Source of the DNA: a virus
Taxonomy: Duplodnaviria > Heunggongvirae > Uroviricota > Caudoviricetes
Virus record (IMG/VR): IMGVR_UViG_3300021387_000529
Coordinates: 218,811-282,810 of that record
DNA: 64,000 nt
Reading direction: 5' to 3' (one strand)
The position numbers and the translations under genes are program-made. The notes under the pieces were generated by a model. It worked only from the letters and a program-made list of their open reading frames with translations, did no database searches and had not been told where the DNA came from. Position 1 is the stretch's first letter, and the number at the start of each line of letters is the position of its first letter. Below, piece by piece: positions 105-59,891 of the stretch.

Positions 105-120
105 AAAAAATTAGTTGAAA

Positions 121-2920: not shown

Positions 2921-3622
2921 ATGGGAAAAGACTTCATAGCGCACTTTGTTGAATTCAAAGATTGGAATTCTGCACTCAACAAGCTTAATAATATGAAAAA
3001 AGCTCGTTATATTCAAGGAGAAGTTTATTCTCTTAATGAGCCTGAACAATCATTTTTTAATGATCGCTATTTTACAGCTAAGTATGACATTAAACATCTT
3101 AATGAAATATATTATACCATCAAAGTTGAAAAAATAAATGGTTTTTCTAAATATGGATATGACTTCCATCCGATGTCGTATCTTTTCAAAGATGGATGGA
3201 CACGATGCCAAGGCTATAAGATTACAATTCGTGGCACAAAATTGAATAATGAAAAAACTGGAATAGATGACTTTTGGCATGGTATGGGGCCAAATGAAAT
3301 AAACTCTATTGTTGACGCAATTGCTCCAGGCTATGATTTTAACTATGCTCATAGCTATAAACCAAAGTTTACAACACTTCCAAAAGAGCTCAAAGAAGCC
3401 GCTAATAAAGCAGCTAAACACTATGACAAATTTGGGGTTTTGATTGAGCTTGGTGACATCATCGTTATTCCGTATGTTATAAATAGCAGTGCCCGCACCT
3501 GTGTTGAAGTTGTTGATAAAATTACTGACACTCGTGTAAATAATGTCACAGCTGAAAAAGTTGTGGTTATACGCACAAATAACACAAACAAAAAACTTAC
3601 GTTTGGAGGTCTTGTAAAATGA
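2921..3622 (+). CDS. hypothetical protein (233 aa)
   Basis: ORF with Shine-Dalgarno site aaggactaagacATG. Confidence 0.5.
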   Translation: MGKDFIAHFVEFKDWNSALNKLNNMKKARYIQGEVYSLNEPEQSFFNDRYFTAKYDIKHLNEIYYTIKVEKINGFSKYGYDFHPMSYLFKDGWTRCQGYKITIRGTKLNNEKTGIDDFWHGMGPNEINSIVDAIAPGYDFNYAHSYKPKFTTLPKELKEAANKAAKHYDKFGVLIELGDIIVIPYVINSSARTCVEVVDKITDTRVNNVTAEKVVVIRTNNTNKKLTFGGLVK

Positions 3623-3936
3623 ATTTTTTTAACAGTGTTGTTTTTAATAGTAATGAAAACAAACTTTCTATTGACTCAGAAGGCGAAGTTGAAATCATTG
3701 TTGATGGAAAAACAATTGCTACTGTAACAGCAAAGAATGTCACTTTCAAAGGAAAAGCAAATAAAGTGAATGGCATGCAATTTAACATAATTGGTGATGT
3801 TTCTGGCGATGTTGATGGCACAAATATTACAATTCAAGGTAATGTTGGTGGCGGTGTTGATGGCACAAATATTACAGTTAAAGGAAGTGTAGATGGCGAT
3901 ATTGATGGAATAAATGTAACTGTCCGTAGTAAATAA
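3619..3936 (+). CDS. bactofilin-like (DUF583-type) beta-helical repeat protein
   Basis: Tandem ~9-residue repeats (IIGDVSGDVDGTNITIQGNVGGGVDGTNITVKGSVDGDIDGINVTV) fit the bactofilin G.V.G.V...I.I repeat pattern. The protein is 105 aa. Confidence 0.45.
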   Translation: MNFFNSVVFNSNENKLSIDSEGEVEIIVDGKTIATVTAKNVTFKGKANKVNGMQFNIIGDVSGDVDGTNITIQGNVGGGVDGTNITVKGSVDGDIDGINVTVRSK

Positions 3937-3961: not shown

Positions 3962-4342
3962 ATGACCAAAGAAATGCTTAAAGCATGTGAAGAATTTCTT
4001 AAGGATGAGAAAAATAGTCCTTCTAATTATAATTTCAAGTCTGATATTTTCAAAGAACTCAGCCATGACAAAGAACAAGAAAAAGAAGCATCATCTGTTG
4101 AGAAGAGATTTTACGATTTTCAAAACAGACTGCGAAAAATATTTATGATTGATGAAAACCATTTTGATATTGACTATTATATCATAAGCGCTGCATTAGC
4201 AGAAGAGTGCCAATATCAAGGTCTCAATCCTCGAGATGCTGTTCGCAGCGCTATGAATGCTCTTAGGTCTGTTATTGTCATCAACAAATATTCAAAATTA
4301 GAAGCAAATTATGAAACGAATAAGATGACGCCTATTCTTTAG
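3962..4342 (+). CDS. hypothetical protein (126 aa)
   Basis: ORF with Shine-Dalgarno site aggagaaggtaataaATG. Confidence 0.5.
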   Translation: MTKEMLKACEEFLKDEKNSPSNYNFKSDIFKELSHDKEQEKEASSVEKRFYDFQNRLRKIFMIDENHFDIDYYIISAALAEECQYQGLNPRDAVRSAMNALRSVIVINKYSKLEANYETNKMTPIL

Positions 4343-5559
4343 TTTCCTCCGCCCCTTTGTATTGCTAACTGCCCAACGAGACCGATAGAATTAAGAATTG
4401 GCTTAAGGTCAGTTTCGATCTCAGTTCGTGTTTCTTTCAATACAGCTGGGTCTAGTTGGCCTGCAACGTCAGTCTTACACAAACTACGCAAAATATTGAA
4501 ATTACGTAAAACTTCTGAACGTGCCATTGGGCGAGCAATTGGCTCTAAATCATCAAAGTCAATATCATCCCAGTTAGGTGACCAACACAACCATTTAATG
4601 TTTAAATTGCCACCAATTGTGCTGTAACCACGAGCATATAGTTTTCCATTTTCTTTTACTTTGCTATAATGCTCACGTCTGAAAACATTCAACATTCCTT
4701 GCTGTGCCATTAGAGCATCAACCATATTAGTTTGTGAGTCTGCTGTTCCAACAAAACCTGGTACCATTTTGTTACGATAACGCAAACCACCACCATAACG
4801 GTTTGAGACTGTTCCCATTCTTCCCATAGCCATTTGTCTTTCGCCAAAGAATGAGAATGGGTTCATAGATTGTCCGCCACCTCCTGTTGCTCCACCTGGT
4901 GTACAGTAATATGGCACGCAACCATATGCATTCTCTGGAAACTCAATGTCGAATGCATTTCCCTGAGCAATATTGCCATATCCCTCTTCACGGATAATTG
5001 GTCTGAATGTATAGTATCTTTGCATTGCAGGCCTAATCATATATTTTACAATCTGTTCTTTTGAATATTCAATATCTTCAAAATTGGCGAATGGGAAACC
5101 AATAATTGTCAAAATTGTTTCAAGTTCATCATCACTGATATTTATTCCGCCATAAGCTGCAACTTTTGTGAGATAGCCTTCTTCTATTGAAGTGTATGGA
5201 ATGAAATTATTATCTGGCAAAAATCCACCATTCCATTTTGCTGGCAAAATACCAAAATATGGAAGCTGAATGCCTTGAACTGCCGCATGAATACCTTCAA
5301 CATCATCTGCTGTCAGTTCATCCCATCTGATTGGAAACTTCGTTTTATTGTCAACACGATAGTCTTCTTGAATATAAACAATTTTATTATGAAGCGGAGC
5401 TCCTGAAACACGTGTTCCATCTAAAGACGCATCAACACGAACGACTGAGCCACGATTGTATATCTTTGTATTCTTATCAACAGTAACCTGTCCTAAAGCA
5501 TTCCAAGTATTCAAAATTTCTTCTTCAGAAGATTGCAATAAATATTTAAACTCATCCAT
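4339..5559 (-). CDS. putative virion structural protein (406 aa, Gly-rich segment), late class
   Basis: Monocistronic minus-strand gene. The ACTAATT box sits 5 nt upstream of the ATG (gacatAACTAATTttatt-ATG) with no Shine-Dalgarno site. The size is compatible with a capsid-type protein, but no fold could be assigned from sequence. Confidence 0.55.
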   Translation of the reverse strand: MDEFKYLLQSSEEEILNTWNALGQVTVDKNTKIYNRGSVVRVDASLDGTRVSGAPLHNKIVYIQEDYRVDNKTKFPIRWDELTADDVEGIHAAVQGIQLPYFGILPAKWNGGFLPDNNFIPYTSIEEGYLTKVAAYGGINISDDELETILTIIGFPFANFEDIEYSKEQIVKYMIRPAMQRYYTFRPIIREEGYGNIAQGNAFDIEFPENAYGCVPYYCTPGGATGGGGQSMNPFSFFGERQMAMGRMGTVSNRYGGGLRYRNKMVPGFVGTADSQTNMVDALMAQQGMLNVFRREHYSKVKENGKLYARGYSTIGGNLNIKWLCWSPNWDDIDFDDLEPIARPMARSEVLRNFNILRSLCKTDVAGQLDPAVLKETRTEIETDLKPILNSIGLVGQLAIQRGGGN

Positions 5560-5576
5560 AATAAAATTAGTTATGT
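5560..5576 (-). promoter_or_regulatory. late-class ACTAATT box immediately upstream of ATG 5559
   Basis: One of at least 14 start-proximal AACTAAWT boxes. Here it also forms an inverted repeat AATTAGT-N8-ACTAATT. Confidence 0.45.
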
Positions 5577-5706
5577 CATACTAATTGTTTATATCACTTG
5601 AGGAATTAGCTTGTTGTCCTCAGCCTTGAATAATATTGATAGGCGATGCAGTAGCATTTTATATGGCAATTATAGCAAATCTAACAAACATTAGGAGAAT
5701 TGACAA

Positions 5707-6753
5707 ATGAGAGTTGACACAAACGCTCAGAAACGCGAAGCTCTTGAGAAAAGACTCGCAGAAAAACGCGCTTTGAGAGAAGGCGCTCAGAAGAAAGTTC
5801 CAGCTTATATGAAGAAACCAACAGCAGACAAAACTGAGAAGTTGGAAGAGGGAAAAACAAATGACTTTGACATTGTTCTTAAAAACTTCAAAGCTCATAA
5901 GCTTGCCAAGCTTGGTGAGTCTAAAGTAACATATAAAGAAATTCGTGCACTTCGTGAAGCTGTAAATGAAGCTAACAAGAAAGGTGTAAAATTGGCAGAA
6001 GCAGATGAAAATTTCGCAGCTCCAGCAGCAGACCCAAATGCAGCAGCAGCCGCTCCTGCTCCAGCAGCTGGTGGTGTTTCACCAGATGTTCAGACACAGA
6101 TTCAGTCTCTTCTTTCACAGGTTCAGGCACTTGCACAGGCAGCTGGCGTAAACACAGCAGACTTCGGTGCAGACCCAAATGCTAATGTTCCTGCAGTTGA
6201 TGGAATGGCACAGCCAACAGCAGCTGATGGTGCAGCTCCAGCAGCAGATCCAAATGCTCCTTTGATGGAAGCTGTAAACAAAGCTCGTAAAGCTAACAAC
6301 GGTAAATGTGATGAAGCTACATTTGTAGACCTCAAAGCACAATTTGGTAAAGCATTGGTTGAGAGCCTTGGTGCTACTCGTGACCGCATCGCAATGCGTT
6401 CAGCTAAACTTGACACATTGAATGAGAAGTTTGAAGGTGACTTCGCTTCTGCATATTTTGAGAATGTTGGCTTGAAAGAGGCTATCTCACCAATCGCTGG
6501 TATTCCTTCTGAGAAAGAAGTTGCTAACGGAACAGCTGATGCTGCTAAAGGTTTGGCAAAAGAGTTGAAAACTCCTGTTGCTTGGCCAGACCATCAGATT
6601 ACAGGCGCTCCACTTCAGGGTGAAGGAGCTAAACAGCAGAAAGTTAAGGAATCTACTTCTCCTGTAACTGATGCTTATGTTGAAAATTTCTATGCTCCAA
6701 AACTTTCTCTCGACACAATTCGTGAGTCTATGCAGAGAGGCATTCTCGGCTAA
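5707..6753 (+). CDS. Ala/Pro-rich protein with repeated A(A/P)ADPNA motif (possible head or scaffold-associated; function unknown)
   Basis: 348-aa ORF with Shine-Dalgarno site ttaggagaattgacaaATG. It has an N-terminal charged coiled-coil-like segment, an A/P-rich low-complexity linker with three ADPNA repeats, and a globular C-terminus. Its G+C is locally higher. Confidence 0.6.
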   Translation: MRVDTNAQKREALEKRLAEKRALREGAQKKVPAYMKKPTADKTEKLEEGKTNDFDIVLKNFKAHKLAKLGESKVTYKEIRALREAVNEANKKGVKLAEADENFAAPAADPNAAAAAPAPAAGGVSPDVQTQIQSLLSQVQALAQAAGVNTADFGADPNANVPAVDGMAQPTAADGAAPAADPNAPLMEAVNKARKANNGKCDEATFVDLKAQFGKALVESLGATRDRIAMRSAKLDTLNEKFEGDFASAYFENVGLKEAISPIAGIPSEKEVANGTADAAKGLAKELKTPVAWPDHQITGAPLQGEGAKQQKVKESTSPVTDAYVENFYAPKLSLDTIRESMQRGILG

Positions 6754-7244: not shown

Positions 7245-7285
7245 ATAAAAGCCACTTTTTCACAAGTGGCTTTATTTATTTTTGA
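7245..7285 (+). terminator. rho-independent terminator
   Basis: aaaagccactt-tttcac-aagtggctttt hairpin followed by a T-run. Confidence 0.6.
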
Positions 7286-7322
7286 ACTTTTATAAAATTT
7301 TTCATATATTATTAATGTAATG
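7277..7322 (+). promoter_or_regulatory. early-class promoter copy (TTGAAC 7282-7287, 17 bp spacer, TATATT 7305-7310)
   Basis: tttttgaacttttataaaatttttcatatattattaatgtaa matches the consensus. Confidence 0.6.
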
Positions 7323-9193: not shown

Positions 9194-9934
9194 ATGCCAC
9201 GCATAAAAAAACCTGTTGAAATCTATTCTAAAACTGGGCTTCCATTCCGTCCAGATATGGAGCTTGTCATCAATGCACAGAAAGGCGATGAGAAGTCTTA
9301 TGTTGAACTTTGGGACAAGTTCTTCTTGCTCAGACAGAAAGAAAAGTTTGAGTTTATCAATTGGTGTAAACAGCATCACATCGAAAATGCAGTGTACCAA
9401 GACTATGTAGACTCTTGGGATGCTGATGCTTGGGAAAAATTCCGCAATCAAATGCCTGGTATTCGTATTGATGAGCTCAAAGCAAAGGGTTATACAAATG
9501 ACAACTGGGGTATCACAATTCGTTTGAAAGGCTACTTTGACGTTGTCAACCGTTCTTACAGCAATAACATCCTTAAGAAATTGAACAATGAAGTTCCAAA
9601 TGTGCGCTTTTATGACAAAGATGATGATGAAGGCGTATCGGTTCTCGATAATGTCTCACGTGATGAAGACATCCTTAAAGGATATGCGAAGAAAATCTTG
9701 AAAACTTCATATTCACGTATGCTTGCAGACTTGAATGTAAAGCAGCGTCAAGTTGTAACTTTGAAAGAAAAAGATTCTTCAGTTTCAGCAATCGTTCGTG
9801 AACTTGGAATAAAACGAAAAGAAGCAACAGATGCGCTCGAATATGCAAAGACACGCCTTGAATATTGGGTTGAAAAGTCTTCAAAAGAAGAAGGCGTGCC
9901 AATGACATATCGCGATATGGTTGAATATTTTTAA
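9194..9934 (+). CDS. putative phage-encoded sigma factor (sigma-70/ECF-like regions 2 and 4)
   Basis: LVINAQKGDEKSYVELWDKF resembles region 2, and the C-terminal LNVKQRQVVTLKEKDSSVSAIVRELGIKRKEATDALEYAKTRLEY resembles a region-4 helix-turn-helix. The protein is 246 aa. Confidence 0.45.
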   Translation: MPRIKKPVEIYSKTGLPFRPDMELVINAQKGDEKSYVELWDKFFLLRQKEKFEFINWCKQHHIENAVYQDYVDSWDADAWEKFRNQMPGIRIDELKAKGYTNDNWGITIRLKGYFDVVNRSYSNNILKKLNNEVPNVRFYDKDDDEGVSVLDNVSRDEDILKGYAKKILKTSYSRMLADLNVKQRQVVTLKEKDSSVSAIVRELGIKRKEATDALEYAKTRLEYWVEKSSKEEGVPMTYRDMVEYF

Positions 9935-12900
9935 GACTTCCATGAAGCGCTCTTCTTTCCTTCAATTTTATTATTGATTTCTGAAAGAAGAGCATAAATA
10001 TCATCCAAAGACTTTGCTCCATTATTTGAGGCTTCAGTAGACTTATTAGACCCAAATGAAAATTTAGACTTCCAATCTGCGATTGGAGAACTGCTTGTTG
10101 ATGTATTTTTTTGAACATCTTTTAGAATCTTCACAGAGTCTTTTTTCTTTGAGAGTTCAACCAATTCATTATTCAATGCATGAATAGATGACGCTAAGCT
10201 ATTAACAACATCTTTTGATGACGATAATGACTCAAATGACTTATTAAATGAGTCAGTAAAACTTGACAATGTATTTGCGTCAAATTTTGTAAGTTCTCTC
10301 ATTGCATCAACAAATTTCTTTGCATTCTTTTTCGATGGAGCTTCTTTTATTCCTTTTTCAATTCCTTTAAATCCACTCTTTAATTTTGAGCCATCAATTT
10401 TTGAAACAGCTTTTGTAATAAAGTCAATAGCTTTTAGACCTTTTACCATTGCTTTACTATCAAATTGAGCAGCAGCATTTCCAGCATCAATAAACTTCTT
10501 GAAAACATTTTTCATAGTTTTACCAATAAGAAGCATACTGACGCTTAATGGAATACATGCTGCAGCTGCAACAACTGAAGCAAGAGAAGCAAGACCGATT
10601 TCTCCATAGATTGGAATTAACTGGCTGATTTTATCTGATATTCCATTTAAGTCTGGAAGTTTGGCTAAAACAGACATTGAAGCGAAAAGTGCAGCTGCTG
10701 TTGGGATTAACAACAATGATGACGCCAACATCAATGGAATTGTTGGAATAATGACAATTGAAGCCAATCCAGCAATTGCCAATGCTCCAAATGTTTTTGC
10801 AAGTCCAAAGGCTTTATCAGTTATCACATTCATGTCTGGGAACTTTTCCATAATTTTGAATGCTCCAAGCAATGCTAATGATGAAGCTAACAATAATACA
10901 CCAGCAACTGTCATCATTGGTGCTAAAACAGCTAATGGAACTGCTGCAGCTGCGGCGACTGTTGTTGCTAAAAGAATTCCTGCTAAACCAACCATAGCAA
11001 GCATCATTTGTCCTACACCACCATTCTCATCTATAACTTGTTTTATTTTTCCAACCATCATCACAGAAAGCAACATTGCTCCTGTTGCGATAACTACTGC
11101 AATTCCTACTGCTGCTAAAGCTCCTGCTCCTGCAAGTACATATGGTGCTATTGCTCCAAGCGCAATAACAGCGGCAAAAACAATTGCCATCACTCCAAAT
11201 CCAAAAAGAACCATTTTCCAGTTCTGTTTCATAAAGTCACCAACTTTTGCAAGAAGTTTTACTGAGATTAAAAGACTTAAACTCATAACAGCTAATGCAA
11301 CAGCTAGAACAATCAATGCAAATGCGCCTTTCAAACAATTTTTTGCGAGCTTAGCAAGTAAGATTAAACCAGCAAATAAGACACCTGCAAGCAATAAACC
11401 TGGAATAGCTAAAACTGTCATTGGAACAGTCAAAAACAAAAGTGTTGTTGCTGTCAACAATGCTGTTGCAAAAACACTTAACAATATTACAGTTGCAATT
11501 CCCCATCCAAGTTCTTTCTTCAAATCAGAAAGTCTATTAAGCATAGTAGAAGTTGCATTAATCATATTTGTAAATTTTTTGTCAATGTTTTTGAGATGAG
11601 AAGCTATTCCTGCGGCGAATTTCATTGCTTTCATAGCGATAGCTAAGTTTATAAACAATGGTGTCATCAACATGCATGATACAATAGCTCCAGCAACTTT
11701 AGAAGGTTTAATATCATTAAATCCACTGAAAACTTTTGCAAGTTTACCAGTAAGAAGAGCGAGTGAGCTAAGCCCATCTTCTAATGATTTTTCATGTTTC
11801 TTAATAAATGAACTTGTAAATTTCAAAGCTAAAAACATCGGAACGAGCTGCAATGAGAATGCGATTATTCCAAACGCAATTAAATTTATATTCATTGCAA
11901 TGTTTTTTACAAGTTTAGTTTTATCTGAAAGCTCTTTTACGAGAGCAATATCTATTCCTGAGAATGCTTCTTTAATCTGTAATACCCAACTGTTAATTCC
12001 ATTTGATAAAAAATAAGATGCCAAAACAGCTGGTAAGATGGCAATCGCAAGTGGTGAAGTTGCGATAATCAATGTGCTCATAGCCATCAAACTCAATGCA
12101 ACCTTTGATATTGTTTTTGTATAATCTACATATTTTTTAGAGTCAAATTTATCAAGTGGTTTTTCAATTTTTTTAACATTTTTTACCCAATTTATTATTC
12201 CACTAAAACCAAGTTTAGAAGTTAACAAAAGCGCAACTTGGTATGGAACACCAGCTAAAATAGCAATTGATGCTCCAATTAAGCTGATTGAAGACTTTCC
12301 AATGTCTTTTGCTATTTTTACGATATTTCCAGAGTCAAAAGTTGCTACTTCACTGAGTTTATTTAAGCTTCGAGCATAATTTGTCAAACCTTTAAGATAA
12401 TTTTTTCTTCCATCTGGGAAAAGTTTATTAACCAATCCACTTAAAGGACGTGACTTAATAATAATTAAACTTATAGAGTTGATTGTTTTTGCAGTTGTTC
12501 TAATATCATTAGAAAACTTAAGTAAAGCTGAAGAGTCAATCTTCATATTTATAATGTCTTTATTAAAAGACTTTGCCCAGTTTTTTATGCCTTTTGATGC
12601 ATTGTTTAAAGCTTTTGTGTCTAATGTTTTTACTTTTGAGATGTCTTTTACAAGTTTATTGAATGACTTAATATATTGAGATGCCGCCATTGTATCACCA
12701 GCGACGATAGCAACTGCATTTATATCTCCACCTTTTTTATCGTTTTTCTTTTTTGTTCCAAAAATGTTTCCAAAAAGATTTTTTATACCACCAAACATTT
12801 TTCCAAAAAGTTGTGGAATTGATGAGAAAAATCCTTTTAAGTCTTTAAATGAACTTGTTATTGTATTCTTAATTCCAGCAAATGGCTTCGTTATTGAGTC

Positions 12901-13464
12901 TTTTATTCCTGCCGTAATTTTTGAGAATGGTGACGTAATTAAACTTGGAAGAGACTTCAATGAACCAAGAGCTTTATTGAAAGTCTTTGTAAATGAGTTT
13001 GACATTGAATTTTGTGATTTTTCAAATGACTTAAACATGTCTCTAAAGCTGTTTCCACCTTTTTCAGCAGATTGTATTTTTTGTGGTCTATCTTTTTTGT
13101 TATCTTTTCCAAGATTTCCAAGAGACTTTGTTTGTATATTCAATGCCTTAACTGTATCATTAAAACCTTTTGTTAGTGTTGCTACAATTACAACTGCTCC
13201 AATTCTGTCTGAAACATCAGATTTCATGTCAGTTACATTTTTAGCTCCAGTTTTTAATGATGAGTTTATTTTCTTTCGTTTATCTATTTCTTCAGACAAA
13301 GATGGACTATTTTTTGAAGACTTTTCATTTATAGTATTACTTTTTGCTGTATCTTCTAAAATTGTAAGAATTTTTTCTAAAGCTTCTGTAATAAAATTAT
13401 TTTCATCTTTAAAATATGATGCTGTTTCGCTTGTAGATTTTGCTATCGCTGTTAGTCCATCCAT
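9931..13464 (-). CDS. tail tape-measure protein (putative)
   Basis: 1177 aa with a Lys-rich N-terminus, a long central block of many hydrophobic, transmembrane-like helices, and coiled-coil C-terminal parts. An ACTAAAT box is 5 nt upstream of the ATG. Confidence 0.6.
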   Translation of the reverse strand: MDGLTAIAKSTSETASYFKDENNFITEALEKILTILEDTAKSNTINEKSSKNSPSLSEEIDKRKKINSSLKTGAKNVTDMKSDVSDRIGAVVIVATLTKGFNDTVKALNIQTKSLGNLGKDNKKDRPQKIQSAEKGGNSFRDMFKSFEKSQNSMSNSFTKTFNKALGSLKSLPSLITSPFSKITAGIKDSITKPFAGIKNTITSSFKDLKGFFSSIPQLFGKMFGGIKNLFGNIFGTKKKNDKKGGDINAVAIVAGDTMAASQYIKSFNKLVKDISKVKTLDTKALNNASKGIKNWAKSFNKDIINMKIDSSALLKFSNDIRTTAKTINSISLIIIKSRPLSGLVNKLFPDGRKNYLKGLTNYARSLNKLSEVATFDSGNIVKIAKDIGKSSISLIGASIAILAGVPYQVALLLTSKLGFSGIINWVKNVKKIEKPLDKFDSKKYVDYTKTISKVALSLMAMSTLIIATSPLAIAILPAVLASYFLSNGINSWVLQIKEAFSGIDIALVKELSDKTKLVKNIAMNINLIAFGIIAFSLQLVPMFLALKFTSSFIKKHEKSLEDGLSSLALLTGKLAKVFSGFNDIKPSKVAGAIVSCMLMTPLFINLAIAMKAMKFAAGIASHLKNIDKKFTNMINATSTMLNRLSDLKKELGWGIATVILLSVFATALLTATTLLFLTVPMTVLAIPGLLLAGVLFAGLILLAKLAKNCLKGAFALIVLAVALAVMSLSLLISVKLLAKVGDFMKQNWKMVLFGFGVMAIVFAAVIALGAIAPYVLAGAGALAAVGIAVVIATGAMLLSVMMVGKIKQVIDENGGVGQMMLAMVGLAGILLATTVAAAAAVPLAVLAPMMTVAGVLLLASSLALLGAFKIMEKFPDMNVITDKAFGLAKTFGALAIAGLASIVIIPTIPLMLASSLLLIPTAAALFASMSVLAKLPDLNGISDKISQLIPIYGEIGLASLASVVAAAACIPLSVSMLLIGKTMKNVFKKFIDAGNAAAQFDSKAMVKGLKAIDFITKAVSKIDGSKLKSGFKGIEKGIKEAPSKKNAKKFVDAMRELTKFDANTLSSFTDSFNKSFESLSSSKDVVNSLASSIHALNNELVELSKKKDSVKILKDVQKNTSTSSSPIADWKSKFSFGSNKSTEASNNGAKSLDDIYALLSEINNKIEGKKSASWKS

Positions 13465-13468
13465 AGAT

Positions 13469-13488
13469 TATTTAGTTATAACTAAATA
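13469..13488. promoter_or_regulatory. perfect 20-bp palindrome TATTTAGTTATAACTAAATA placing an AACTAAAT box before both divergent genes (13464 minus strand, 13495 plus strand)
   Basis: Seen directly in the sequence. It is a bidirectional version of the late-class box. Confidence 0.5.
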
Positions 13489-13494
13489 TATTGT

Positions 13495-16400
13495 ATGACT
13501 GACAATAAAGATCCTTACATTTATAATGTTGATAAAAACTCAGATTTTGAACAATTCGCATGGGCTCTTGAAAATTTTGATGTAAAAGCAGCATTCAAAG
13601 ATTTTCTAAATATTGAAAATAACATACAAAAAAGTGATAAAGAAAATAACACAAAAATTTATGATAGTCTCTATAAACAGTTTCTTGATACAAAGTCTTC
13701 AGATCATCTTTCACAATTACAGCTTGATGTTTTAAATTATATTCTTAAATATGAGAACGGAACATATAAAGTTAATGATAAAATCGTAGACATCGAAACT
13801 AACAAGGGTGAAAAGACTTTTACGCTCTATGAGCCAGGATTTTATAAGGTTGAGATTAAAGGACCATCAGGACTTCAATTAAAAAACTCAACAAATCAAT
13901 TTTTATCATCTGGAAAAAATTATGTAGTTTATGAGTCTAAAGATAAAACAACATTTTTTATCATCAATACTAAGTTTGAATACATTTTCCAATATGCTGT
14001 ATCTTCAAATATAAATATTTCATGTGGTGTAGCTGAAGTAAATGACACAAATGTTTTTCTTTTTGAGCAATTTCATGATTATGATCGACCGGTACATAAT
14101 TTTCAGCAATTAATTGAGGTTGATAATTATTTTAATAAATGTGACGTTTATAATGTTAATAAGTCTACTGTATTTGAGTATTTTTCTTTCATAGATGATG
14201 CGTTTGATAAAAACTTTTATTGTCTTAAGACTAATATTGTTTCACAAAGTACAATTTTATCACATGCAGATATAACATACAATCCAACCACATATGTATG
14301 TGGTTTACCAGAAAATGAACGAAGTGAATATCTATCTGGAATTCAAAACGGTTATTATTCTAAAAAAATTTCTGAAAATATGAATATTAACTCTTTGAAA
14401 GAGCTTACTTTCTCTTCATTTTTGAAGTCTGGTGCTGTTTACAATTATAATTATTTGCATGGTGGTGATGGTGGCTCGGTTGTCGCAATTATTAAGCTCG
14501 ATAAAGAAACAACTTTCCAATACAATATTGGAAAGTCTGATGAAGGAAGTTCTACATTTTTAAAGTCATCTAATTATAGTTTCTATGCAGAATGTGGTCT
14601 TAATGCGAATGAAAAAAGTTTTTTAAAGACATCTGACCATATATCAAATGATAGCCTATGCAATTTAAGACTCATCACAGACCATAATTTTAGAGATGAC
14701 GCATCAAAATCTACAACAGACAAAGTAAACTTCCATATTGGAGAAAACTTAGACTATAGCACATATGAAGCCGGTTGCGGAAGAGGCTTTGTTATTATAA
14801 ACAATAATTGTGTTTTTGAGTCTTATGGCGCAGGAGAATATGGCTCAGGCTATAGACTGAATGAATTTAAAAATGCAGTTTATCAACCTCCAAAAAATGG
14901 TTCTATTAAAATAGAATTTCTTGGCTCAAGATATGTTCTTCATAAAAAAGTAAATTTTAGCTCAGACAACAATATTAGAAATAATTTGTATATATGTGAT
15001 GAAGGTCTTCCAATTGGCTGTAAATTTAATTTCCAATCAATGATTACGAATTCTATGTATGGTTGTTTCAAAAATACATATAGCTTCTTGTCTGAAAATG
15101 GAAGACATTTTAACTACATTGGAATTTCTGTTGATACAAAGGAAATTGAAGATAATGTTGTATTAAACTTTGATAACAACTTGAAATATATAAATATCGA
15201 TAAAGAAAATAAAACAATTTTTACACTTCAAAATGACAAAAATCTTTTTGGAACCCTTACTGGATCTGATGGTGAAAGTCTTATGTTAGACACTATTATG
15301 AATGGGTCTTTCAGTTTTTATAATGACCTTTTGTATAATTATAATAAATTTTGTTCAAATGGTCTTTCAGTAAGTATTTCATCATTCTCATCAGAAAGCT
15401 TTGACCTAAAAACATTATTTAAAAACTTTAATAATTTAAATATATTTAATAATGTTGAGTCAATTACACAAGTTGAGTTTTCTTTTGAAAACTCTTTATC
15501 ATTTTCAAAATACACTGACATCTATGGACAAGTCGTATTGCCAGACGTTGATGAGGCTAAGATAGTAAAACTTGAGTACTCTCTTTATAATCATGAAAGT
15601 CCTGTTCCATATGAAAAAGGCCAAAAAATAATTATTCCTTCAAATACTAAAATGTTTTTGAAATTTACATTTAACACTTCAAGGGTAAGACTTGATGAAA
15701 ATCTTACATCATTTCAAGGCTATAAATATTTTTATAGAAAAAATGTAGATTTTGATAATAACTACATAAAAGATGAATATTTTAAAACTAATGGAATAAA
15801 CTTTCAATGTGTTGAATTTATTCCTCAAACATCACAATATTGCAGCGTTTTTATTCAAAAAAATACATATAATTTCTCAATTAGTCCAGACCTTTTTAAT
15901 GAGCTCGACTTAAAAAATTTCTATAATAGAAGTGAGTTTGAAGTTGGAGAAGCTGTTCTTTTACAATTGAACATTAAAAACTATGTTAGAGTTTCAAATT
16001 TAAAAAATTATTATTATAAACAACAGTCAAAAACGATACTTGGTACGCCATTCCCAGCCCCAGATAAAACTTGCCCTTGCTATACATATTTTGATACAAA
16101 TAATATTTTTGAGTCTTTTATTAGATTTGGAAACCTTGAAGACGATAAAAATTTTTGTGACTCTTCAGTTGTAGACCTTTTATCAAGAAAAGGTTTCAAC
16201 AATGTGGCGATTGAAAGCGGCAAAGAAAAAAATTATAATGGCATTGATGTTCTATGCTCAAGAGAAGTTGAAGAAAAAGACTATGAAGGTGATATTACAA
16301 ATAACCCAACTTTAAAAATCACATGTACTGCGTCTGCTTCAAAAGATGAATCTGTCTTTATCTATATCTACATGAAAGAATGCGATATTAAATTAAGACT

Positions 16401-18018: not shown

Positions 18019-18693
18019 GCACTCTTTCAACACTAATGTATTTTGTGTTGTTATGTCATAATAATAAAAAACAGTTAAATTCTCTTTAGTCTTCTCTTCA
18101 AAATAGACTCTATCAAGTTTATTTTTTTCTAAAGAGAATTTCAAAATTTCTCTTCCTTCTTTTAAAATATCTTTTAAAAATTCATGATTACTACTTACAC
18201 CATGCTCATAAAAATAAAGGTCTGTTATTTGGTTTTTTAGATTAAACGAACAATAATTCAAATAAAATATTTTTCCGTTCAAACCAAAGACAAGCTCATT
18301 TTTAATGTTGCTACTTAATATTTCAACCAGTTCTTTTAATGAACTAATGTAAAAATTCTTTATTTTATATATTTGTCTTCTGTTAAAGAAATCTTCACTG
18401 ATAGACGGATTTATGATTTCATAATATTCTTTTAATTTTCCATCTTTTATTTTTTCTGCTCCAAAATAACTGTCACCTCTGTCATAAAAATATGCATATT
18501 CTTTTGCATCTTCAATTGACGGAATTTTACCATTTATGTAGTCCTCATAAGGAACTTTTATCTCAATCTCAGTGATAGTCTTTTTGGTGCATTTAGACTT
18601 CGCATTTTTTAGTCCTAATTTTCTGCGAAGTCTATTTGCTTTTCTATTTGCTCTTTTAATTTCTCGTTTAATTCTTCTTGGTAAAGTTTCCAT
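17986..18693 (-). CDS. hypothetical protein with an Arg/Lys-rich N-terminus (nucleic-acid-binding-like); start uncertain (the track ORF extends to 18747)
   Basis: The internal ATG at 18693 (METLPRRIKREIKRANRK...) overlaps the SbcC stop by 26 nt. No Mre11/SbcD phosphoesterase motifs are present. Confidence 0.45.
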   Translation of the reverse strand: METLPRRIKREIKRANRKANRLRRKLGLKNAKSKCTKKTITEIEIKVPYEDYINGKIPSIEDAKEYAYFYDRGDSYFGAEKIKDGKLKEYYEIINPSISEDFFNRRQIYKIKNFYISSLKELVEILSSNIKNELVFGLNGKIFYLNYCSFNLKNQITDLYFYEHGVSSNHEFLKDILKEGREILKFSLEKNKLDRVYFEEKTKENLTVFYYYDITTQNTLVLKECLLQRLFRNKG

Positions 18694-20719
18694 TTTTTGC
18701 CTCAAAAATATAAATATCGTCATAATTCTCTTCCAAATAACTTCCAAGAGCTTTTTTATGAGATATTAAAAACAGTTGATGGAACTGATGAAGATTTAGT
18801 AAAACTGAAAAAAGTTTAATGGAGTCATTATCGCTTGAGGCTTTATCGATTTCATCTCCAACAAAAAAGTCTATTTTGTAATATTTTGCCAAAATAGTCT
18901 TAAAAGCTGTTGTCAAAACTGCACGTTCAAATCCAGATGACATTCGTGTATCAAGCCATCTATTCTTATTTTCATCAACAACCGTATTGTCTTTTGTATA
19001 CAGCAAATCACAGCCTTTTTTAGAAGTCTTTACAAGGACATCATATTTTGGGAAAATCATATGAACGAAGGCATTTAGATCATTTTTGATTGTATCACAA
19101 AAAACTTTAGTTCGATACTGTGGCAACAACTTATTCAAAACTTCCCAAGCTTCATCATAAACAGATGCCATTATATTCACTTCTGTAAGTTCAGCTTCAT
19201 TCTTTCCCAAAGCTTCATCTATGGCTTTAATTTTATTTCTCTTCTCTTCATTTTGTCTCATGATAAATTGATTTTTATCATTTGCGCGCTCATATTCTTT
19301 TATGTCAGCAAGAATTTTATTATTCTCATTGACTATGCCAGAAACATCAACTTTCTTAATAGAAGAAACTTTATCTTGAAGAGTCTTCTGCTCAACCTCT
19401 AATTTTGAAATTAAGTCTTTCAAGTCTGCAAGTCTTTTTCTGACTAAAGGCTCTTCTGCTAATGAATAACTAATGCCTTTTTTAACTTCCTCAGACTCTA
19501 CAATCATATTCTCATAATTTCTTTTCATATGAGTATATTCTGTGTGAGCTGCTGTCAATTCAGCACTTGTGCTCTGAGCGTTTGTGTTTGCTGTCCTATA
19601 ATAGTCCACCATTTTATCAGCATCTAAACATTTTTCTTTAAGTTCTGAAATCTCTTTCTCAAAATGAGCGACAACATTGTCTGTGCTTTGGCCACAAACT
19701 GGGCACTTTCCATCTCTACATTTTTCTTCTCTCTCTTCAAAAGATTTCAACTCAAATCTGAGGTTGTTTCGTGTGTCAGTCGCTTCGCTTAATTGTTTGT
19801 AAGTCTCTGCAATTGTGTCTTCAATTTTGTTTATGTCTTTGCTTCTTTCAATTGCTTCTGCATCAAGCTCAGCAATTTTTTCCTTAAATTCTTCAATTCG
19901 CTTGTCTTCATCTACAAGTTTATTTTTCAAATTGTCAATGTCACGAAGTTTATTTTCATATGGAGCTACATCGAGTTGGTTTTTATGAAGAGATAATTCG
20001 ACTTCACGGAGCTGAGACATCAATTCATCTTGTTTTTTCTGAGCTTCACTTACTTTAGAAATTTTTTCCAAGTTTTCAGATAGTCTATTATTAAATTTAA
20101 TAATCTGCTCAGCTGTAAAAGGCATTGCAATAGCTTGCTCAAAATGAGACAATTCAGACTTCAAAGCATTTTTAGACGCAGTGTCAATACGCAATTCTTC
20201 GAGCTGTTTTTTTGCCTGTTGCAATTTTTCAGTAATTATCTGCTTTTGTGAGTCATAATTAAAATTAAAAAGATTTTTAATGTATTCAAGACGCGAAGCT
20301 GATGTTTGGTCTACAATATCTTTCGCATTCTGCATTTGGAACATAATTTTTGAATAATATGAAATTCCAAGAGCAGAGAGTTTTTCAGACGCTTTTGTAT
20401 TTTTATATGTTTCGCCTTTGTAGTCTAATTCACATTCATATGGTGTGCCATTCACACGGTTCAATGTTAGGCGTATTTCTGCATCATCCTCATAAATCTT
20501 AAACTTTAAGACAATATTAGCGTTATCACACCCTTGTTTTACATATTCACCATATGTGCCAGAACGTTTTTCATCACTAAAACATATTGATATTGCTTCG
20601 AATACAGCAGATTTTCCAGAAGCTGGTTCTCCATAAAAATAATTTATATTTCCAAAATCAAATGAAGCATTTGTAATGTTCATGAAATTTTTAATTGAAA
20701 GAGACTTTATTCTTAACAT
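18668..20719 (-). CDS. SbcC/Rad50-like SMC-family ATPase (recombination nuclease subunit)
   Basis: N-terminal Walker A (YFYGEPASGKSAV), a long coiled coil with a central CPVCGQ zinc hook, a C-terminal signature (MSSGFERAV), and Walker B plus D-loop (FFVGDEIDKAS). The protein is 683 aa. Confidence 0.85.
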   Translation of the reverse strand: MLRIKSLSIKNFMNITNASFDFGNINYFYGEPASGKSAVFEAISICFSDEKRSGTYGEYVKQGCDNANIVLKFKIYEDDAEIRLTLNRVNGTPYECELDYKGETYKNTKASEKLSALGISYYSKIMFQMQNAKDIVDQTSASRLEYIKNLFNFNYDSQKQIITEKLQQAKKQLEELRIDTASKNALKSELSHFEQAIAMPFTAEQIIKFNNRLSENLEKISKVSEAQKKQDELMSQLREVELSLHKNQLDVAPYENKLRDIDNLKNKLVDEDKRIEEFKEKIAELDAEAIERSKDINKIEDTIAETYKQLSEATDTRNNLRFELKSFEEREEKCRDGKCPVCGQSTDNVVAHFEKEISELKEKCLDADKMVDYYRTANTNAQSTSAELTAAHTEYTHMKRNYENMIVESEEVKKGISYSLAEEPLVRKRLADLKDLISKLEVEQKTLQDKVSSIKKVDVSGIVNENNKILADIKEYERANDKNQFIMRQNEEKRNKIKAIDEALGKNEAELTEVNIMASVYDEAWEVLNKLLPQYRTKVFCDTIKNDLNAFVHMIFPKYDVLVKTSKKGCDLLYTKDNTVVDENKNRWLDTRMSSGFERAVLTTAFKTILAKYYKIDFFVGDEIDKASSDNDSIKLFSVLLNLHQFHQLFLISHKKALGSYLEENYDDIYIFEAKNGNFTKKN

Positions 20720-25544: not shown

Positions 25545-25558
25545 GAAATAATTAGTTG
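25545..25558 (-). promoter_or_regulatory. late-class AACTAATT box 5 nt upstream of ATG 25544
   Basis: Member of the start-proximal box family. Confidence 0.45.
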
Positions 25559-25766: not shown

Positions 25767-25937
25767 TTACTTAGTGTGACTTGCCCAAGGGTTGTAAGGT
25801 TTGAGACAATTCTCAGAATATTTCTTACAAGATGGGCATCTCTGACGTGCCGTAACTGCTGTTGTACTTGGAACTCTGATAGTCCACTGAAATTTACATT
25901 TTGGACATTGAAATTGAATTGACTTAATTGATGCCAT
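25767..25937 (-). CDS. small zinc-ribbon protein (56 aa), absent from the ORF track because it is under 60 aa
   Basis: Reverse-strand ORF MASIKSIQFQCPKCKFQWTIRVPSTTAVTARQRCPSCKKYSENCLKPYNPWASHTK with two CxxC pairs. It has a strong Shine-Dalgarno site AAGGAGA 9 nt upstream and sits tightly between two minus-strand genes (3-nt gap, 14-nt overlap). Confidence 0.55.
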   Translation of the reverse strand: MASIKSIQFQCPKCKFQWTIRVPSTTAVTARQRCPSCKKYSENCLKPYNPWASHTK

Positions 25938-26367: not shown

Positions 26368-26373
26368 AATTAT

Positions 26374-27138
26374 TTAGTTGGATGCACGTTTAAGTCTATC
26401 CAAAAGCTCAAGTTCGATGAGATTAACCATATCAATTTCTTTTTTATTAGAGCAACACATTTTAATAAATTGACTTTTGATGTGTCTGTTCTTTGGCTTT
26501 TTGAAAATCAAATTGATGTAAAAGCGACACTTCATTTTGATAATGTCACCACCACAAACTTGTTCAAGTTCTTCATCCAATTCATGCAAAACTTCTTCAA
26601 CAATGTCTTCAAATGTGTTTTTGAACATATCTTCAAAATGGTCATAGTCTTGCGAAAGAATAGGCTTAATGTCTGCTTTGTCAGCAATGCTCAATAAGTC
26701 CAATTCAGATGAGTCTGTATCAAGAATTAAAGAAAGAGTTTTGTCTTCTTCTTTTTCACCATAAACAGCTTCAAGAACTTTGTAGTTAATCATTTTACCG
26801 AATGACGTTCCACATTTAAAATTACGACGATACAAATATTGTGACATAAAACGAAGTGATGAGTCACTTGTGTAGTCATCAATAATGTCTGGAGACAAAA
26901 ACTTTTTATGCTTCAATTTCTGCAAAACCATTGAACGAGCATATGTCTGAACAAAACCATACATCTTTGTCCAAATGTTTATTTTCTGTTTATCGTCTTT
27001 TTCTTTGTACCATGCTTCTTGAAGTTTGTAAAGTGTCTGTTCAATTTCAGGTTTATCTTCTAATGAGCCTTCCCACTCGACTTCAGTTGCGTCATCAACT
27101 TCAGGGCGGTCGTCTTCTTCGTAATCAATCAAATCCAT
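26374..27138 (-). CDS. hypothetical protein with an acidic N-terminus (254 aa)
   Basis: ORF. A weak resemblance to a transcription-factor or sigma-like helix-turn-helix at the C-terminus is not supportable from sequence alone. Confidence 0.5.
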   Translation of the reverse strand: MDLIDYEEDDRPEVDDATEVEWEGSLEDKPEIEQTLYKLQEAWYKEKDDKQKINIWTKMYGFVQTYARSMVLQKLKHKKFLSPDIIDDYTSDSSLRFMSQYLYRRNFKCGTSFGKMINYKVLEAVYGEKEEDKTLSLILDTDSSELDLLSIADKADIKPILSQDYDHFEDMFKNTFEDIVEEVLHELDEELEQVCGGDIIKMKCRFYINLIFKKPKNRHIKSQFIKMCCSNKKEIDMVNLIELELLDRLKRASN

Positions 27139-38515: not shown

Positions 38516-38546
38516 TCAAGCCGGCGAAAGCCGGCTAATTTTTTAA
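38516..38546 (+). terminator. rho-independent terminator
   Basis: agccggc-gaa-agccggct followed by aatttttt. Confidence 0.7.
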
Positions 38547-39808: not shown

Positions 39809-39817
39809 AATAAAAAA

Positions 39818-39845
39818 TTAGTCGCCCTTTCGGGCGACTTTTATT
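39818..39845. terminator. hairpin terminator (agtcgccc-tttc-gggcgact) serving minus-strand gene 39851..40048; it overlaps the box of gene 39808
   Basis: Stem-loop with flanking T-runs on both strands. Confidence 0.55.
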
Positions 39846-41794: not shown

Positions 41795-41918
41795 GTGTAA
41801 TAATCTCCTTAATAAAAAATTAGTTGGCTTATTTTAAATATACCATTCAATATGTTATGCAAGGTCATTGAAAGTATTCATCATAAATTTTTTAGTCTCC
41901 ATTGTAAAAAATTAGTTT

Positions 41919-42245
41919 TTAAATAAACTTATCTAATATTACAAAGTCTTTTTTCTCAAAAAAATTTTTAAGAGGAACAAACTTTTTAATTTTAGATTTT
42001 TGAAATACCATAAAAATTGCAATCAGCTTTTGTTGTGTATTTATAGATAAATTTTTTAATAAAGTATAGTTATAAAATTTATTTTTTTCTAAAACACTAC
42101 ACAAGTATAAGAAAACTTTCTCTAATAGCTCATCATAATACCCATGAAAAGCATTACATTTAATGATATTTTGCAGAGCTAAATTTATATAATTTAACTC
42201 TGCATTGTCAGACTCTAACTCAAAATTAGTTTCCAGTTCCGTCAT
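41919..42245 (-). CDS. doubtful ORF in a very AT-rich gap (108 aa from the ATG at 42245)
   Basis: Open frame overlapping the giant gene stop by 20 nt with no Shine-Dalgarno site. The region has roughly 20% G+C and may be non-coding or regulatory. Confidence 0.25.
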   Translation of the reverse strand: MTELETNFELESDNAELNYINLALQNIIKCNAFHGYYDELLEKVFLYLCSVLEKNKFYNYTLLKNLSINTQQKLIAIFMVFQKSKIKKFVPLKNFFEKKDFVILDKFI

Positions 42246-49296: not shown

Positions 49297-49314
49297 AATT
49301 AAATAATTAGTTAT
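49297..49314 (-). promoter_or_regulatory. late-class AACTAATT box 8 nt upstream of ATG 49296
   Basis: Member of the start-proximal box family. Confidence 0.45.
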
Positions 49315-53442: not shown

Positions 53443-53900
53443 TGAAAAATTTTGATGAGTGCGGAATGACAGTCGCACATTTGTATGGAAAACAGTCAAC
53501 TTGCAGCCGAAAACAGGTTGGAGTTGCAATTCTTGACAATTATGGACATGTAATTTCAACTGGCTTTAATGGCTCACCAAGCGGTTGTGAGCATTGTAAA
53601 GATGTCTTTACGCCAGATAAGATTAAAAGTCCAGACTACATGGAAGCACATCGACAGTGGGCAGCAATCAATGAAATTCATGGTGAAGCAAATGCAATTA
53701 TTACAGCATTGAAGTTGGGCCGCTCACTTGAAGGATGTATTCTTTACACAACTCTCTCACCGTGTAAAGATTGCGCAAAACTTATCATCGCAGCTGGAAT
53801 AAAAGAAGTTGTTTATGATGAAGTCTATGACAGAGACTCTAGTCCAGTTGAATGGCTCAAAAATCATAGTGTTAAAATTAGGCAGTACTCACTAAACTAA
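53442..53900 (+). CDS. dCMP deaminase (zinc-dependent cytidine/deoxycytidylate deaminase family)
   Basis: H(A/G)E motif (IHGEANAI) and PCKDCAKLI (PCxxC) zinc ligands. The protein is 152 aa. Confidence 0.8.
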   Translation: MKNFDECGMTVAHLYGKQSTCSRKQVGVAILDNYGHVISTGFNGSPSGCEHCKDVFTPDKIKSPDYMEAHRQWAAINEIHGEANAIITALKLGRSLEGCILYTTLSPCKDCAKLIIAAGIKEVVYDEVYDRDSSPVEWLKNHSVKIRQYSLN

Positions 53901-53910
53901 ATTTAATACA

Positions 53911-54206: not shown

Positions 54207-54464
54207 TTAGTCTTTCTTCGACTGTTTCTTAGCTTCAGCTTCTTTTAGCCATTCAGGTTTTGAAGCTTCTTTACGTTCAGCATCAGCAATCTTTTTCTGG
54301 ATATGGCGTGCATGAACTCTCTTCAAATGTTTCTTTGCAGAAGGCTTAACATAACGTGTCCGTTCCATGTAGTCTGAAAGAATACATTCTTTGTCAATCT
54401 CTTTCTTGAACTTGCGAAGTGCTTTATCAAGAGACATTTTCTCAGTAAGATTGACGGTTACCAT
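54207..54464 (-). CDS. rpsU: ribosomal protein bS21 homologue
   Basis: MVTVNLTEKMSLDKALRKFKKEIDKECILSDYMERTRYVKPSAKKHLKRVHARHIQKK aligns with E. coli S21 ([59 protein letters not shown]), and the protein has a Lys-rich C-terminal tail. The likely start is the ATG at 54464 with Shine-Dalgarno site AAGGA; the track extends to GTG 54500. Confidence 0.8.
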   Translation of the reverse strand: MVTVNLTEKMSLDKALRKFKKEIDKECILSDYMERTRYVKPSAKKHLKRVHARHIQKKIADAERKEASKPEWLKEAEAKKQSKKD

Positions 54465-54850: not shown

Positions 54851-54871
54851 TGTATTATAATTAGTCAATTT

Positions 54872-54883
54872 AACTAAATATTT
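54872..54883 (+). promoter_or_regulatory. late-class AACTAAAT box 4 nt upstream of ATG 54884 (plus-strand example)
   Basis: caatttAACTAAATattt-ATG with no Shine-Dalgarno site. Confidence 0.45.
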
Positions 54884-58902: not shown

Positions 58903-58918
58903 TAATCACTAAATCTAC

Positions 58919-59695: not shown

Positions 59696-59891
59696 TATAT
59701 AAAGGAATACGAAAATGGATTTTGATAAATTTTGTTCAACAAACTGTATGACAACAAATGAAACTGAAGACTTTAAAAAATGGCTTACTAAAAGAAAGGA
59801 TAATCTCGAGCCACGCTCAATAAACAATTGGCTATATGTGTTTAATTTATTTTTTGACTCTCACTAATTTTTAATAAAGGAGAAATTGTAA

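Follow-up and report, generated by a model that had tools for sequence, protein, structure and literature searches.

ACTAAWT, a start-abutting box without a −35 element, as the probable core of a phage-specific promoter class giving near-leaderless mRNAs

The 64,000-nucleotide (nt) stretch analysed here (the window), positions 218,811 to 282,810 of the IMG/VR virus record IMGVR_UViG_3300021387_000529, raises the question of how a phage starts those of its genes that lack a Shine–Dalgarno (SD) site within a genome rich in such sites. On the minus strand at 5565–5571, the word ACTAATT stands 5 nt before the ATG of a gene for a 406-amino-acid (aa) protein, and the consensus ACTAAWT, hereafter the box, recurs before other starts on both strands. 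A preliminary description of the window had proposed that the box is a −10-like element of a late promoter producing leaderless or very short-leader mRNAs. The analysis presented here suggests, with a probability of about 0.7, that ACTAAWT is the core recognition element, and possibly the sole one, of a phage-specific promoter class that lacks a −35 element and yields mRNAs with near-zero leaders. The sequence read comprises the window and both its flanks, approximately 82 kb or some quarter of a genome of about 300 kb. It was compared with eight distinct related metagenomic loci (the relatives), in which a 348-aa marker protein is 74–33% identical.

The window contains 22 exact copies of ACTAAWT on both strands and the word is under-represented, since dinucleotide shuffles predict 36.7 ± 5.8. 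Fifteen of the 22 lie directly upstream of a start codon, which bears out the start-proximal position described earlier. In 13 of these, an ATG follows 4–8 nt downstream, with an A/T-rich spacer and no SD site (Table 1). The other two, before ATGs 41794 and 59892, combine the box with a subsequent SD site, as had been noted, at gaps of 23 and 22 nt and with AAGGAG between. One more copy precedes the gene of the 348-aa protein, which has an SD site, and six copies have no connection to any start. The ATG at 41902 opens an open reading frame (ORF) of only 15 codons. Copies with one mismatch are not enriched near starts (17 of 479 in the window), and a wider family of such boxes was rejected, save for two start-proximal sites, ACTAAGT before ATG 25763 and GCTAATT before ATG 38550.

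The association with starts exceeds that of comparable words. An ATG that lies 3–9 nt downstream and opens an ORF of at least 50 codons is found for 11 of the 22 copies in the window and for 24 of 63 in the relatives, compared with 2.5% for 419 permuted words of the same composition taken together. Copies abutting an ATG thus exceed the level of such control words 15–20 times, and the relatives show this independently of the window. The enrichment also emerges without prior choice of the word: when 7-mers are counted without bias over the 40 nt preceding each of 72 called genes, four groups stand out, namely the SD word AGGAGA, TTAATAT/TATTAAT, CATATATTAT and ACTAAWT. In the window and relatives together, 28–35 of the 85 copies abut a start, 29 lie within 300 nt upstream of a gene on the same strand and 25 are intragenic, in DNA of which only 8.8% is intergenic.

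The box stands in place of the SD site, as the preliminary description had it. The best duplex with the anti-SD sequence has a mean energy of +0.2 kcal/mol for the 14 box-proximal genes, compared with −7.0 kcal/mol for 52 other genes (Mann–Whitney p = 3.5e-7); gene calls were made with a simple codon-usage score, and some GTG or TTG starts among the other genes are probably wrong. All 14 box-proximal genes of the window start with ATG, and no GTG or TTG alternative is found among 38 abutting sites in the window, flanks and relatives. At these 38 sites the distance from box to ATG is bimodal, with the mode at 4–5 nt (10 and 11 sites) and a second group at 7–8 nt (5 and 7 sites); gaps of 3, 6 and 9 nt occur at 2, 2 and 1 sites, respectively. 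The box TAA coincides with the stop codon of an upstream gene at four boxes (26372–26378, 42224–42230, 53896–53902 and 59863–59869). Termination–reinitiation was rejected as an account of the boxes in general, since at most of them no gene on the same strand comes to its end.

When 36 sites are aligned, no position between −50 and −1 exceeds 0.28 bits and none other than the box is conserved between −50 and +35, so that there is no −35 element; in particular, no TTGACA-like hexamer is found 16–18 bp upstream. The base before the box, given earlier as A or C, is mostly A but is not fixed, with A at 17 of the 36 sites. The box does not conform to the canonical sigma-70/sigma-A −10 element TANNNT. 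Its invariant core is ACTAAWT. Only TAAWTN could be read as TANNNT, but roughly half of the sites end this hexamer in T, and at gaps of 4–5 nt it would place the start point within the ATG. Leaderless genes are by accepted practice recognized in silico by a −10-like signal approximately 10–12 bp before the start codon (PMC3160421). By the criterion of that study, the box genes have the leaderless signature: a promoter-type signal about 10 nt upstream, no SD site and an AUG start. Of the late-promoter reading proposed earlier, the promoter-type signal and the leaderless signature are supported.

Several observations suggest that the box most likely acts as a promoter signal in DNA and not as a substitute for a ribosome-binding site. 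Within the genes of the window it occurs once in sense and three times in antisense orientation, whereas shuffling the codon order predicts 10.1 and 10.1 copies; not one of 300 shuffles gave so few, and control words show no depletion. Avoidance on both strands points to a promoter, because a signal in RNA would be avoided on one strand only. Boxes are also found 20–140 nt upstream of genes with an SD site of their own, and that site is normal wherever it was read. The divergent gaps 13464/13495 (30 bp) and 54850/54884 (33 bp) hold nothing conserved but two back-to-back boxes. At 38519–38536, 39820–39839 and 58870–58892 the box lies at or after a terminator-like hairpin, so that a new transcript must begin there. 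Moreover, each SD-less gene has its own motif, even where tandem genes are only a few nt apart, as leaderless initiation demands an AUG at the 5′ end; in the right flank, the box is repeated before each of three such genes (618, 533 and 339 aa). Genes without a motif of their own have an SD site. The two flanks on the same scaffold contribute seven further box sites.

The box is present at orthologous genes in eight of the eight related loci. It precedes the 406-aa orthologue as well as other genes, and the copy at 5565–5571 is kept as AATTAGT in five aligned relatives. A back-to-back pair is likewise found in relatives between the tape-measure-like gene and a gene for a 1408-aa protein, and relative L001 has the same divergent pair. 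Upstream of the 348-aa orthologue, a box lies approximately 100–125 nt away in seven relatives (L001, L003, L004, L006, L007, L008 and L011) and approximately 260 nt away in L009. In the closer relatives, as in the window, a small stem-loop and a strong SD site follow this box. The strong SD site is present in the window and in L001 and L004, the relatives whose start region was read; in the window, the leader before the 348-aa gene is no more stable than shuffled sequences (z = +1.66). In L006, the most distant relative, boxes next to an ATG are few, which suggests that the leaderless arrangement is restricted to the closer clade. The same locus contains tandem box–hairpin–box–hairpin arrays with GC-rich hairpins at 9855–9960 and 13462–13560.

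In the mechanism that these features suggest, the transcription start point would lie a few bases past the box. With a box 3–9 nt from the ATG, the mRNA leader would measure 0 to about 5 nt and the message would be translated by the leaderless route, which would account for genes that have no SD site, always start with ATG and each carry a box. A box 20–140 nt upstream would instead give a leader with a normal SD site. The host core polymerase would be redirected by a phage factor, for which the sigma-like protein encoded at 9194–9934 is one candidate. The box would then form the late class of a three-class programme, with early promoters of the sigma-A-like type TTGAAC-N17-TATATT read by the host polymerase and a second class marked by TTAATAT. 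The class is presumed late because it serves mainly large virion-type genes (those for the head-to-tail adaptor, the tape-measure-like protein, the 1507-aa and 2356-aa proteins and the highly expressed 348-aa protein), that is, on gene content and not on timing.

A number of points weigh against this interpretation, which is drawn wholly from sequence. As noted, the box departs from the canonical TANNNT form of a −10 element. At a gap of 4 nt, sigma-70-like geometry would put the start point inside the ATG, so that the distance to the start would have to be shorter than usual. The bimodal spacing implies that many transcripts, above all those with gaps of 7–9 nt, would be only nearly leaderless, with 3–4 nt or so ahead of the AUG. 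The structural model of the sigma-like candidate is only moderately confident and its sequence matches fall below curated thresholds; its apparent region 4 also seems at odds with a box that has no −35 element. The interpretation also presupposes a host able to translate leaderless mRNA efficiently. Finally, the designation late or structural depends on few genes, as most box genes have no recognizable function.

The box might alternatively be a promoter read by a phage-encoded RNA polymerase and not by the host enzyme with a phage sigma-like factor. Such a polymerase might take the form of a multisubunit non-virion enzyme, like those of AR9 and phiKZ, or reside in one domain of a giant protein. 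The genome of about 300 kb leaves room for it, as about 82 kb was read; in this quarter or so of the genome, and in the loci of the relatives, no split β/β′-like subunits were found. The 2356-aa and 1507-aa proteins have no assigned function. Moreover, the motif is short, close to the start and without a −35 element, and about half of the sites open with AAC, in loose resemblance to the AR9 late element AACA-N6-TA/G; the AR9 virion-polymerase consensus also has ATATATTAT in common with the early motif (PMC5312081). We nevertheless regard a phage polymerase as unlikely. A search of every frame of the window and of all fetched loci for a DFDGD-type catalytic motif was negative, and the large proteins scanned gave no polymerase family match. 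Early promoters with TTGAAC −35 elements at 17 bp are typical of a host sigma-A holoenzyme, a sigma-like gene is conserved in the clade, and AR9 transcripts have leaders of 26–491 nt and are not leaderless (PMC5312081). An RNA-level role, in which the box replaces the SD site as a translational enhancer or as a binding site for ribosomes carrying phage bS21, on longer transcripts from other promoters, would explain the narrow distance of 3–9 nt from SD-less ATGs. It would also suit the phage bS21 gene beside box genes, given the proposal that phage bS21 favours phage late mRNAs (PMC9723584). This role is very improbable in view of the conserved boxes upstream of genes with their own SD site, the avoidance of the box on the antisense strand of genes as well, the 30-bp divergent gaps that offer no other conserved promoter candidate and the boxes that follow terminator-like hairpins; by inspection, the box is also not complementary to the anti-SD tail.

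Equally slight is the likelihood that the box is an endonuclease cleavage site at which long transcripts are processed into leaderless mRNAs, for example by a phage beta-CASP nuclease. A beta-CASP/RMMBL nuclease is indeed encoded at the right edge of the window, the box is AU-rich, and the stem-loops that follow it in L006 and ahead of the 348-aa gene might shield 5′ ends left by processing. However, divergent boxes would then require antisense transcription through both neighbouring genes, and the avoidance on both strands and the position just past terminator-like hairpins fit initiation better. That the box is an operator half-site of a dimeric phage repressor or activator of conventional promoters is scarcely credible. 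Inverted pairs do occur at 13470–13487, 5565–5586 and 54859–54879, and a degenerate partner precedes the box ending at 49311, but all clear pairs occupy gaps between divergent genes and have each box facing its own gene, most sites are single, the spacing of paired boxes varies (4, 7 and 8 nt), and no conventional −35/−10 pair accompanies the boxes.

Two other promoter-like classes are recognizable beside the putative ACTAAWT class. The first has the form TTTTTGAAC-N17-(TTTTCA)TATATTATATNCGTAA, with 11 copies of the literal core CATATATTA in the window. At least eight copies have the full 59-nt TTGAAC/TATATT architecture, TTTTTGAAC-N17-TTTTCATATATTATATNCGTAA, and sit upstream of a leader with an SD site; this class looks like a strong host sigma-A promoter. 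Its core ATATATTAT equals nine bases of the AR9 virion-polymerase consensus AAATATATATTAT, here with a sigma-A-like −35 element. The second class, TTAATAT(WWTA), has no visible −35 element and is conserved in relatives. At five genes of the window it stands 7–9 nt before an SD-less ATG: those for thymidine kinase (1897), GroEL (51350, minus strand) and proteins of 254, 153 and 102 aa (starts 27138 on the minus strand, 35234 and 51505, respectively). Other copies precede a leader with an SD site. Of the 111 copies in the whole of the sequence read, 12 stand directly before a long ORF, compared with 2.9% for permuted words. TTAATAT serves DNA-metabolism and chaperone genes, in relatives also those of a 5′–3′ exonuclease and an Mre11-like phosphoesterase. 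The earlier statement that essentially all metabolic genes have SD sites does not hold for thymidine kinase, GroEL and others, which have TTAATAT and no SD site, and start-abutting signals of the leaderless type accordingly extend beyond structural genes. That a further −10-like class also abuts starts makes the leaderless reading of the box stronger. A repeat of about 95 nt (88–100% identical) lies between divergent promoters at 20752–20843 and 51387–51479, with a third copy in L018 near 12050–12110; an inverted segment, GGGAAGCAG...TGCTTACCC, and a run, TTTAAAGATTATTTAAACAGGTAAC, form part of the repeat, which could be a regulator site or a small RNA.

The 246-aa protein encoded at 9194–9934 had been named as a sigma candidate, and the predicted fold is consistent with that proposal. 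By fold comparison of a predicted model (predicted local distance difference test score, pLDDT, 71.6), the protein is sigma-like in both region 2 and region 4, with a region-2.1-like N terminus and a C-terminal helix-turn-helix. Sequence evidence lies below curated thresholds for sigma models. Pfam Sigma70_r4_2 matches seven of 11 homologues (best 5e-4), with the window protein at 15.4 bits against a cut-off of 25.7, and a PHROG sigma match has a sub-threshold E = 0.007. Searches of the PDB with phmmer and with a profile gave nothing significant (profile E ≥ 0.1). The gene is kept beside the same gene block in relatives (67, 44, 32 and 32% identity), and its upstream region contains TTGAAC-N17-TATATA and an SD site, as expected for an early gene. 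No second sigma paralogue is present in the window. It is plausible that the protein is a specificity factor for some phage promoter class, whether that of the box or that of TTAATAT.

Most proteins encoded by box genes have no family match. The 1177-aa protein matches tape-measure PHROGs weakly (E = 1e-4). Neither the 1507-aa and 2356-aa proteins, earlier called virion proteins, nor the 258-aa product of 58919–59695, earlier called a peptidase, has a significant match that would justify these labels. The 406-aa protein belongs to no sequence family, and its predicted fold is that of a head-to-tail adaptor or connector. It is about twice as long as solved adaptors and has a low-confidence, glycine-rich insert at residues 222–294. 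This fold supports a role as a virion adaptor and agrees with the structural-type label given before. The 348-aa gene has the highest codon bias in the window. Its product was considered as the major capsid protein and this assignment was dropped, as the alignment is alanine-rich and helical-looking and gives no structural match by sequence; the protein is better described as highly expressed and probably head-associated. Because AAA ATPase, GGDEF and radical-SAM proteins carry boxes, the class is not purely structural. For a phage, the gene content is unusual in several respects, with a GroEL-type chaperonin, an SPFH/flotillin protein with alanine-rich repeats, an SMC/SbcC-like ATPase, a GGDEF protein, a eukaryote-type topoisomerase I domain and a bactofilin-like protein (below threshold).

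Two loci show unusual arrangements around the box. The convergent genes 38550–39230 (plus strand) and 39227–39808 (minus strand) overlap by 4 nt at their ends, and both start directly after near-identical GC-rich hairpins in the order hairpin-(A/G)CTAATTTTTTA-ATG (38519–38550 and 39808–39839), with the 3′ arm and T-tail making up the box and spacer. Upstream of the AAA ATPase gene, a 15-codon mini-ORF (METKKFMMNTFNDLA; 41856–41902, minus strand) precedes the second box and the SD site, and the box before it (41910–41916) may be a second upstream promoter for this gene.

A homologue of ribosomal protein bS21 is encoded directly downstream of, and on the same strand as, the box gene 54515–54850 (Table 1). 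Upstream of the bS21 gene itself lie a TTAATCT motif and an SD site, and relative L003 also has a bS21 gene (11853–12077). Phage bS21 genes sit among structural genes and are expressed late, and a proposed role of theirs is to make ribosomes prefer phage mRNAs (PMC9723584). A relevance of bS21 to the translation of SD-less mRNAs is possible and speculative. One could imagine a late channel of two levels in an SD-dependent host, with the box, read through a divergent sigma-like factor, giving every late gene a leaderless mRNA of its own and ribosomes remodelled by bS21 favouring these SD-less messages over host and early phage mRNAs; we hold this extension to be doubtful.

Table 1 Coordinates of boxes, other promoter candidates and genes in the window (aa, length of the encoded protein)
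Feature	Position	Strand	Context
Box ACTAATT	5565..5571	−	5 nt before ATG 5559 of the 406-aa gene (4339-5559); no SD site
Box ACTAATT	5580..5586	+	120 nt upstream of the 348-aa gene (5707-6753); followed by a short stem-loop, then a strong SD site
Box	109..115	−	4 nt before ATG 104; 463-aa gene running past the left window edge
Two divergent boxes, palindrome ATTTAGTTATAACTAAAT	13470..13487	both	30-bp intergenic gap; minus box 5 nt from ATG 13464 (1177 aa), plus box 7 nt from ATG 13495 (1507 aa)
Box	25550..25556	−	5 nt before ATG 25544 (364 aa)
One-mismatch box ACTAAGT	25769..25775	−	5 nt before ATG 25763 (66 aa, zinc-ribbon-like)
Box	26372..26378	−	4 nt before ATG 26367 (147 aa); TAA is the stop codon of the upstream 254-aa gene
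One-mismatch box GCTAATT	38534..38540	+	9 nt before ATG 38550 (radical SAM protein); overlaps 3′ arm and T-tail of hairpin 38519-38536
Box	39816..39822	−	7 nt before ATG 39808 (193 aa); overlaps 3′ arm and T-tail of hairpin 39820-39839
Box	41818..41824	−	23 nt before ATG 41794 (580 aa, AAA ATPase); AAGGAG between; leadered mode
Box	41910..41916	−	7 nt before ATG 41902 (15-codon ORF only)
Box	42224..42230		TAA is the stop codon of the 2356-aa gene; no obvious gene start after
Box	49305..49311	−	8 nt before ATG 49296 (2356 aa)
Box	53896..53902	+	8 nt before ATG 53911 (88 aa); TAA is the dCMP deaminase stop codon
Divergent box pair	54859..54879	both	33-bp gap; 54859-54865 (−) 8 nt from ATG 54850 (111 aa; bS21 gene next), 54873-54879 (+) 4 nt from ATG 54884 (557 aa)
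Box	58908..58914	+	4 nt before ATG 58919 (258 aa); 16 nt past hairpin 58870-58892
Box	59863..59869	+	22 nt before ATG 59892 (411 aa); AAGGAG between; TAA is the stop codon of an upstream 50-aa ORF
59-nt early-type promoters	405-463, 7263-7321, 27144-27202, 28138-28196, 34332-34390, 51786-51844, 61980-62038; near 393 (−)		
TTAATAT copies	1881, 20746 (−), 20859, 27152 (−), 31138, 35220, 36052, 51365 (−), 51491, 59692		
Sigma-70-family-like gene, 246 aa	9194..9934	+	Divergent; candidate specificity factor
Ribosomal protein bS21 homologue	54207..54464	−	PF01165, E = 1.1e-11, 44.6 bits against a cut-off of 27
Genes of unusual content (listed jointly)	49704-51350 (−), 31182-32825, 3619-3936, 18668-20719 (−); L018 16528-17547, 19718-20342		

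The window is part of a 300,791-bp scaffold (ENA ERZ28612940, SHIW14-1_SAMN02144230-S009_METAG-scaffold_16), with 0 mismatches over 10.8 kb. The scaffold label and the NCBI prefix AUXO of one related contig denote, we assume, sheep-rumen metagenomes. The 348-aa protein has 39 homologues, all metagenomic, on contigs of up to 260–300 kb, and the phage belongs to an uncultured clade of phages of roughly 260–300 kb. No relative was found by megablast of 12 kb against 50,697 phage records, and tblastn of three window proteins against the same records gave no match. A scan of IMG/VR with a single protein was also without a match, and a scan with an alignment gave one locus. Scans of GTDB genomes for a host, with the 348-aa alignment and with RecA, returned no match, and the window contains no tRNA genes.

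The closest known cases are the leaderless late genes of Thermus phages and the late promoters of T4, with Thermus the nearer. T4 late promoters share with the box a −10-only architecture without a −35 element. They consist of an 8-bp TATAAATA at −10, used with gp55, gp33 and the sliding clamp, which differs from ACTAAWT, and the 246-aa protein is closer to sigma factors of the extracytoplasmic function (ECF) type, with regions 2 and 4, than to gp55. T4 late mRNAs have leaders with SD sites. In SPO1 (gp28, gp33/34), early genes are expressed by the host enzyme from strong sigma-A-type promoters and later ones with phage sigma factors (PMC13401047). The window resembles SPO1 in its sigma-A-type early promoters and in later classes with a consensus of their own. 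However, the middle and late promoters of SPO1 combine a −35 with a −10 element and give leadered mRNAs, whereas the box has no −35 element, and a single sigma-like gene, without a paralogue in the window, was found here.

In the Thermus phages YS40 and Lalka27a, most transcripts start at the initiator codon, and the late promoters of Lalka27a have a TAGGGT −10 element attributed to a phage factor acting on the host polymerase (bioRxiv 10.64898/2026.04.20.719267). Common to these phages and the present one are a large lytic phage and, as predicted here from the DNA, transcripts starting at the start codon and a distinctive −10-type late element. Unlike in the Thermus phages, the element is ACTAAWT, there is no conserved upstream base such as the Thermus C at −25, and only particular promoter classes abut starts. 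Leaderless genes make up 36–46% in Deinococcus-Thermus compared with 2–17% in Firmicutes (PMC3160421). The low G+C content and abundant SD sites of the present genome suggest that its host probably relies on SD sites, unlike Thermus hosts. As in cellular leaderless genes, a promoter element abuts an AUG start without an SD site (PMC3160421); the box differs in that it is not TANNNT, lies 1–2 nt closer, is phage-specific and is counter-selected elsewhere in the genome. AR9 has late promoters AACA-N6-TA/G, its own polymerase and 5′ untranslated regions of the length given above, and AR9 and phiKZ are, like the present phage, jumbo phages with a very short late element near the start point and no −35 element (PMC5312081). 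Their consensus, AACA-N6-TA/G or TATG, is not that of the box, the sequence read here contains no polymerase subunit genes, and the early promoters look host-type. The new elements are the box word, the uncultured clade and leaderless genes specific to promoter classes within a strong-SD genome; a literature search for ACTAATT together with phage and promoter returned only primers and unrelated papers.

If the promoter reading of the box is correct, the temporal programme of uncultured rumen and gut phages of about 300 kb could be read from sequence, and box-bearing genes could provisionally be called late or virion genes, though their proteins are almost all unannotatable. It would represent systematic, promoter-class-specific leaderless expression in a strong-SD genome, which for phages is documented mainly in Thermus. 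ACTAAWT and the 246-aa sigma-like protein would, if correctly paired, be a compact candidate for an orthogonal promoter and factor. The bS21 gene beside SD-less, putatively late genes makes a role of phage bS21 in leaderless or SD-less initiation testable, and, should the two-level channel hold, the box genes would provide the first concrete mRNA feature linked to phage bS21.

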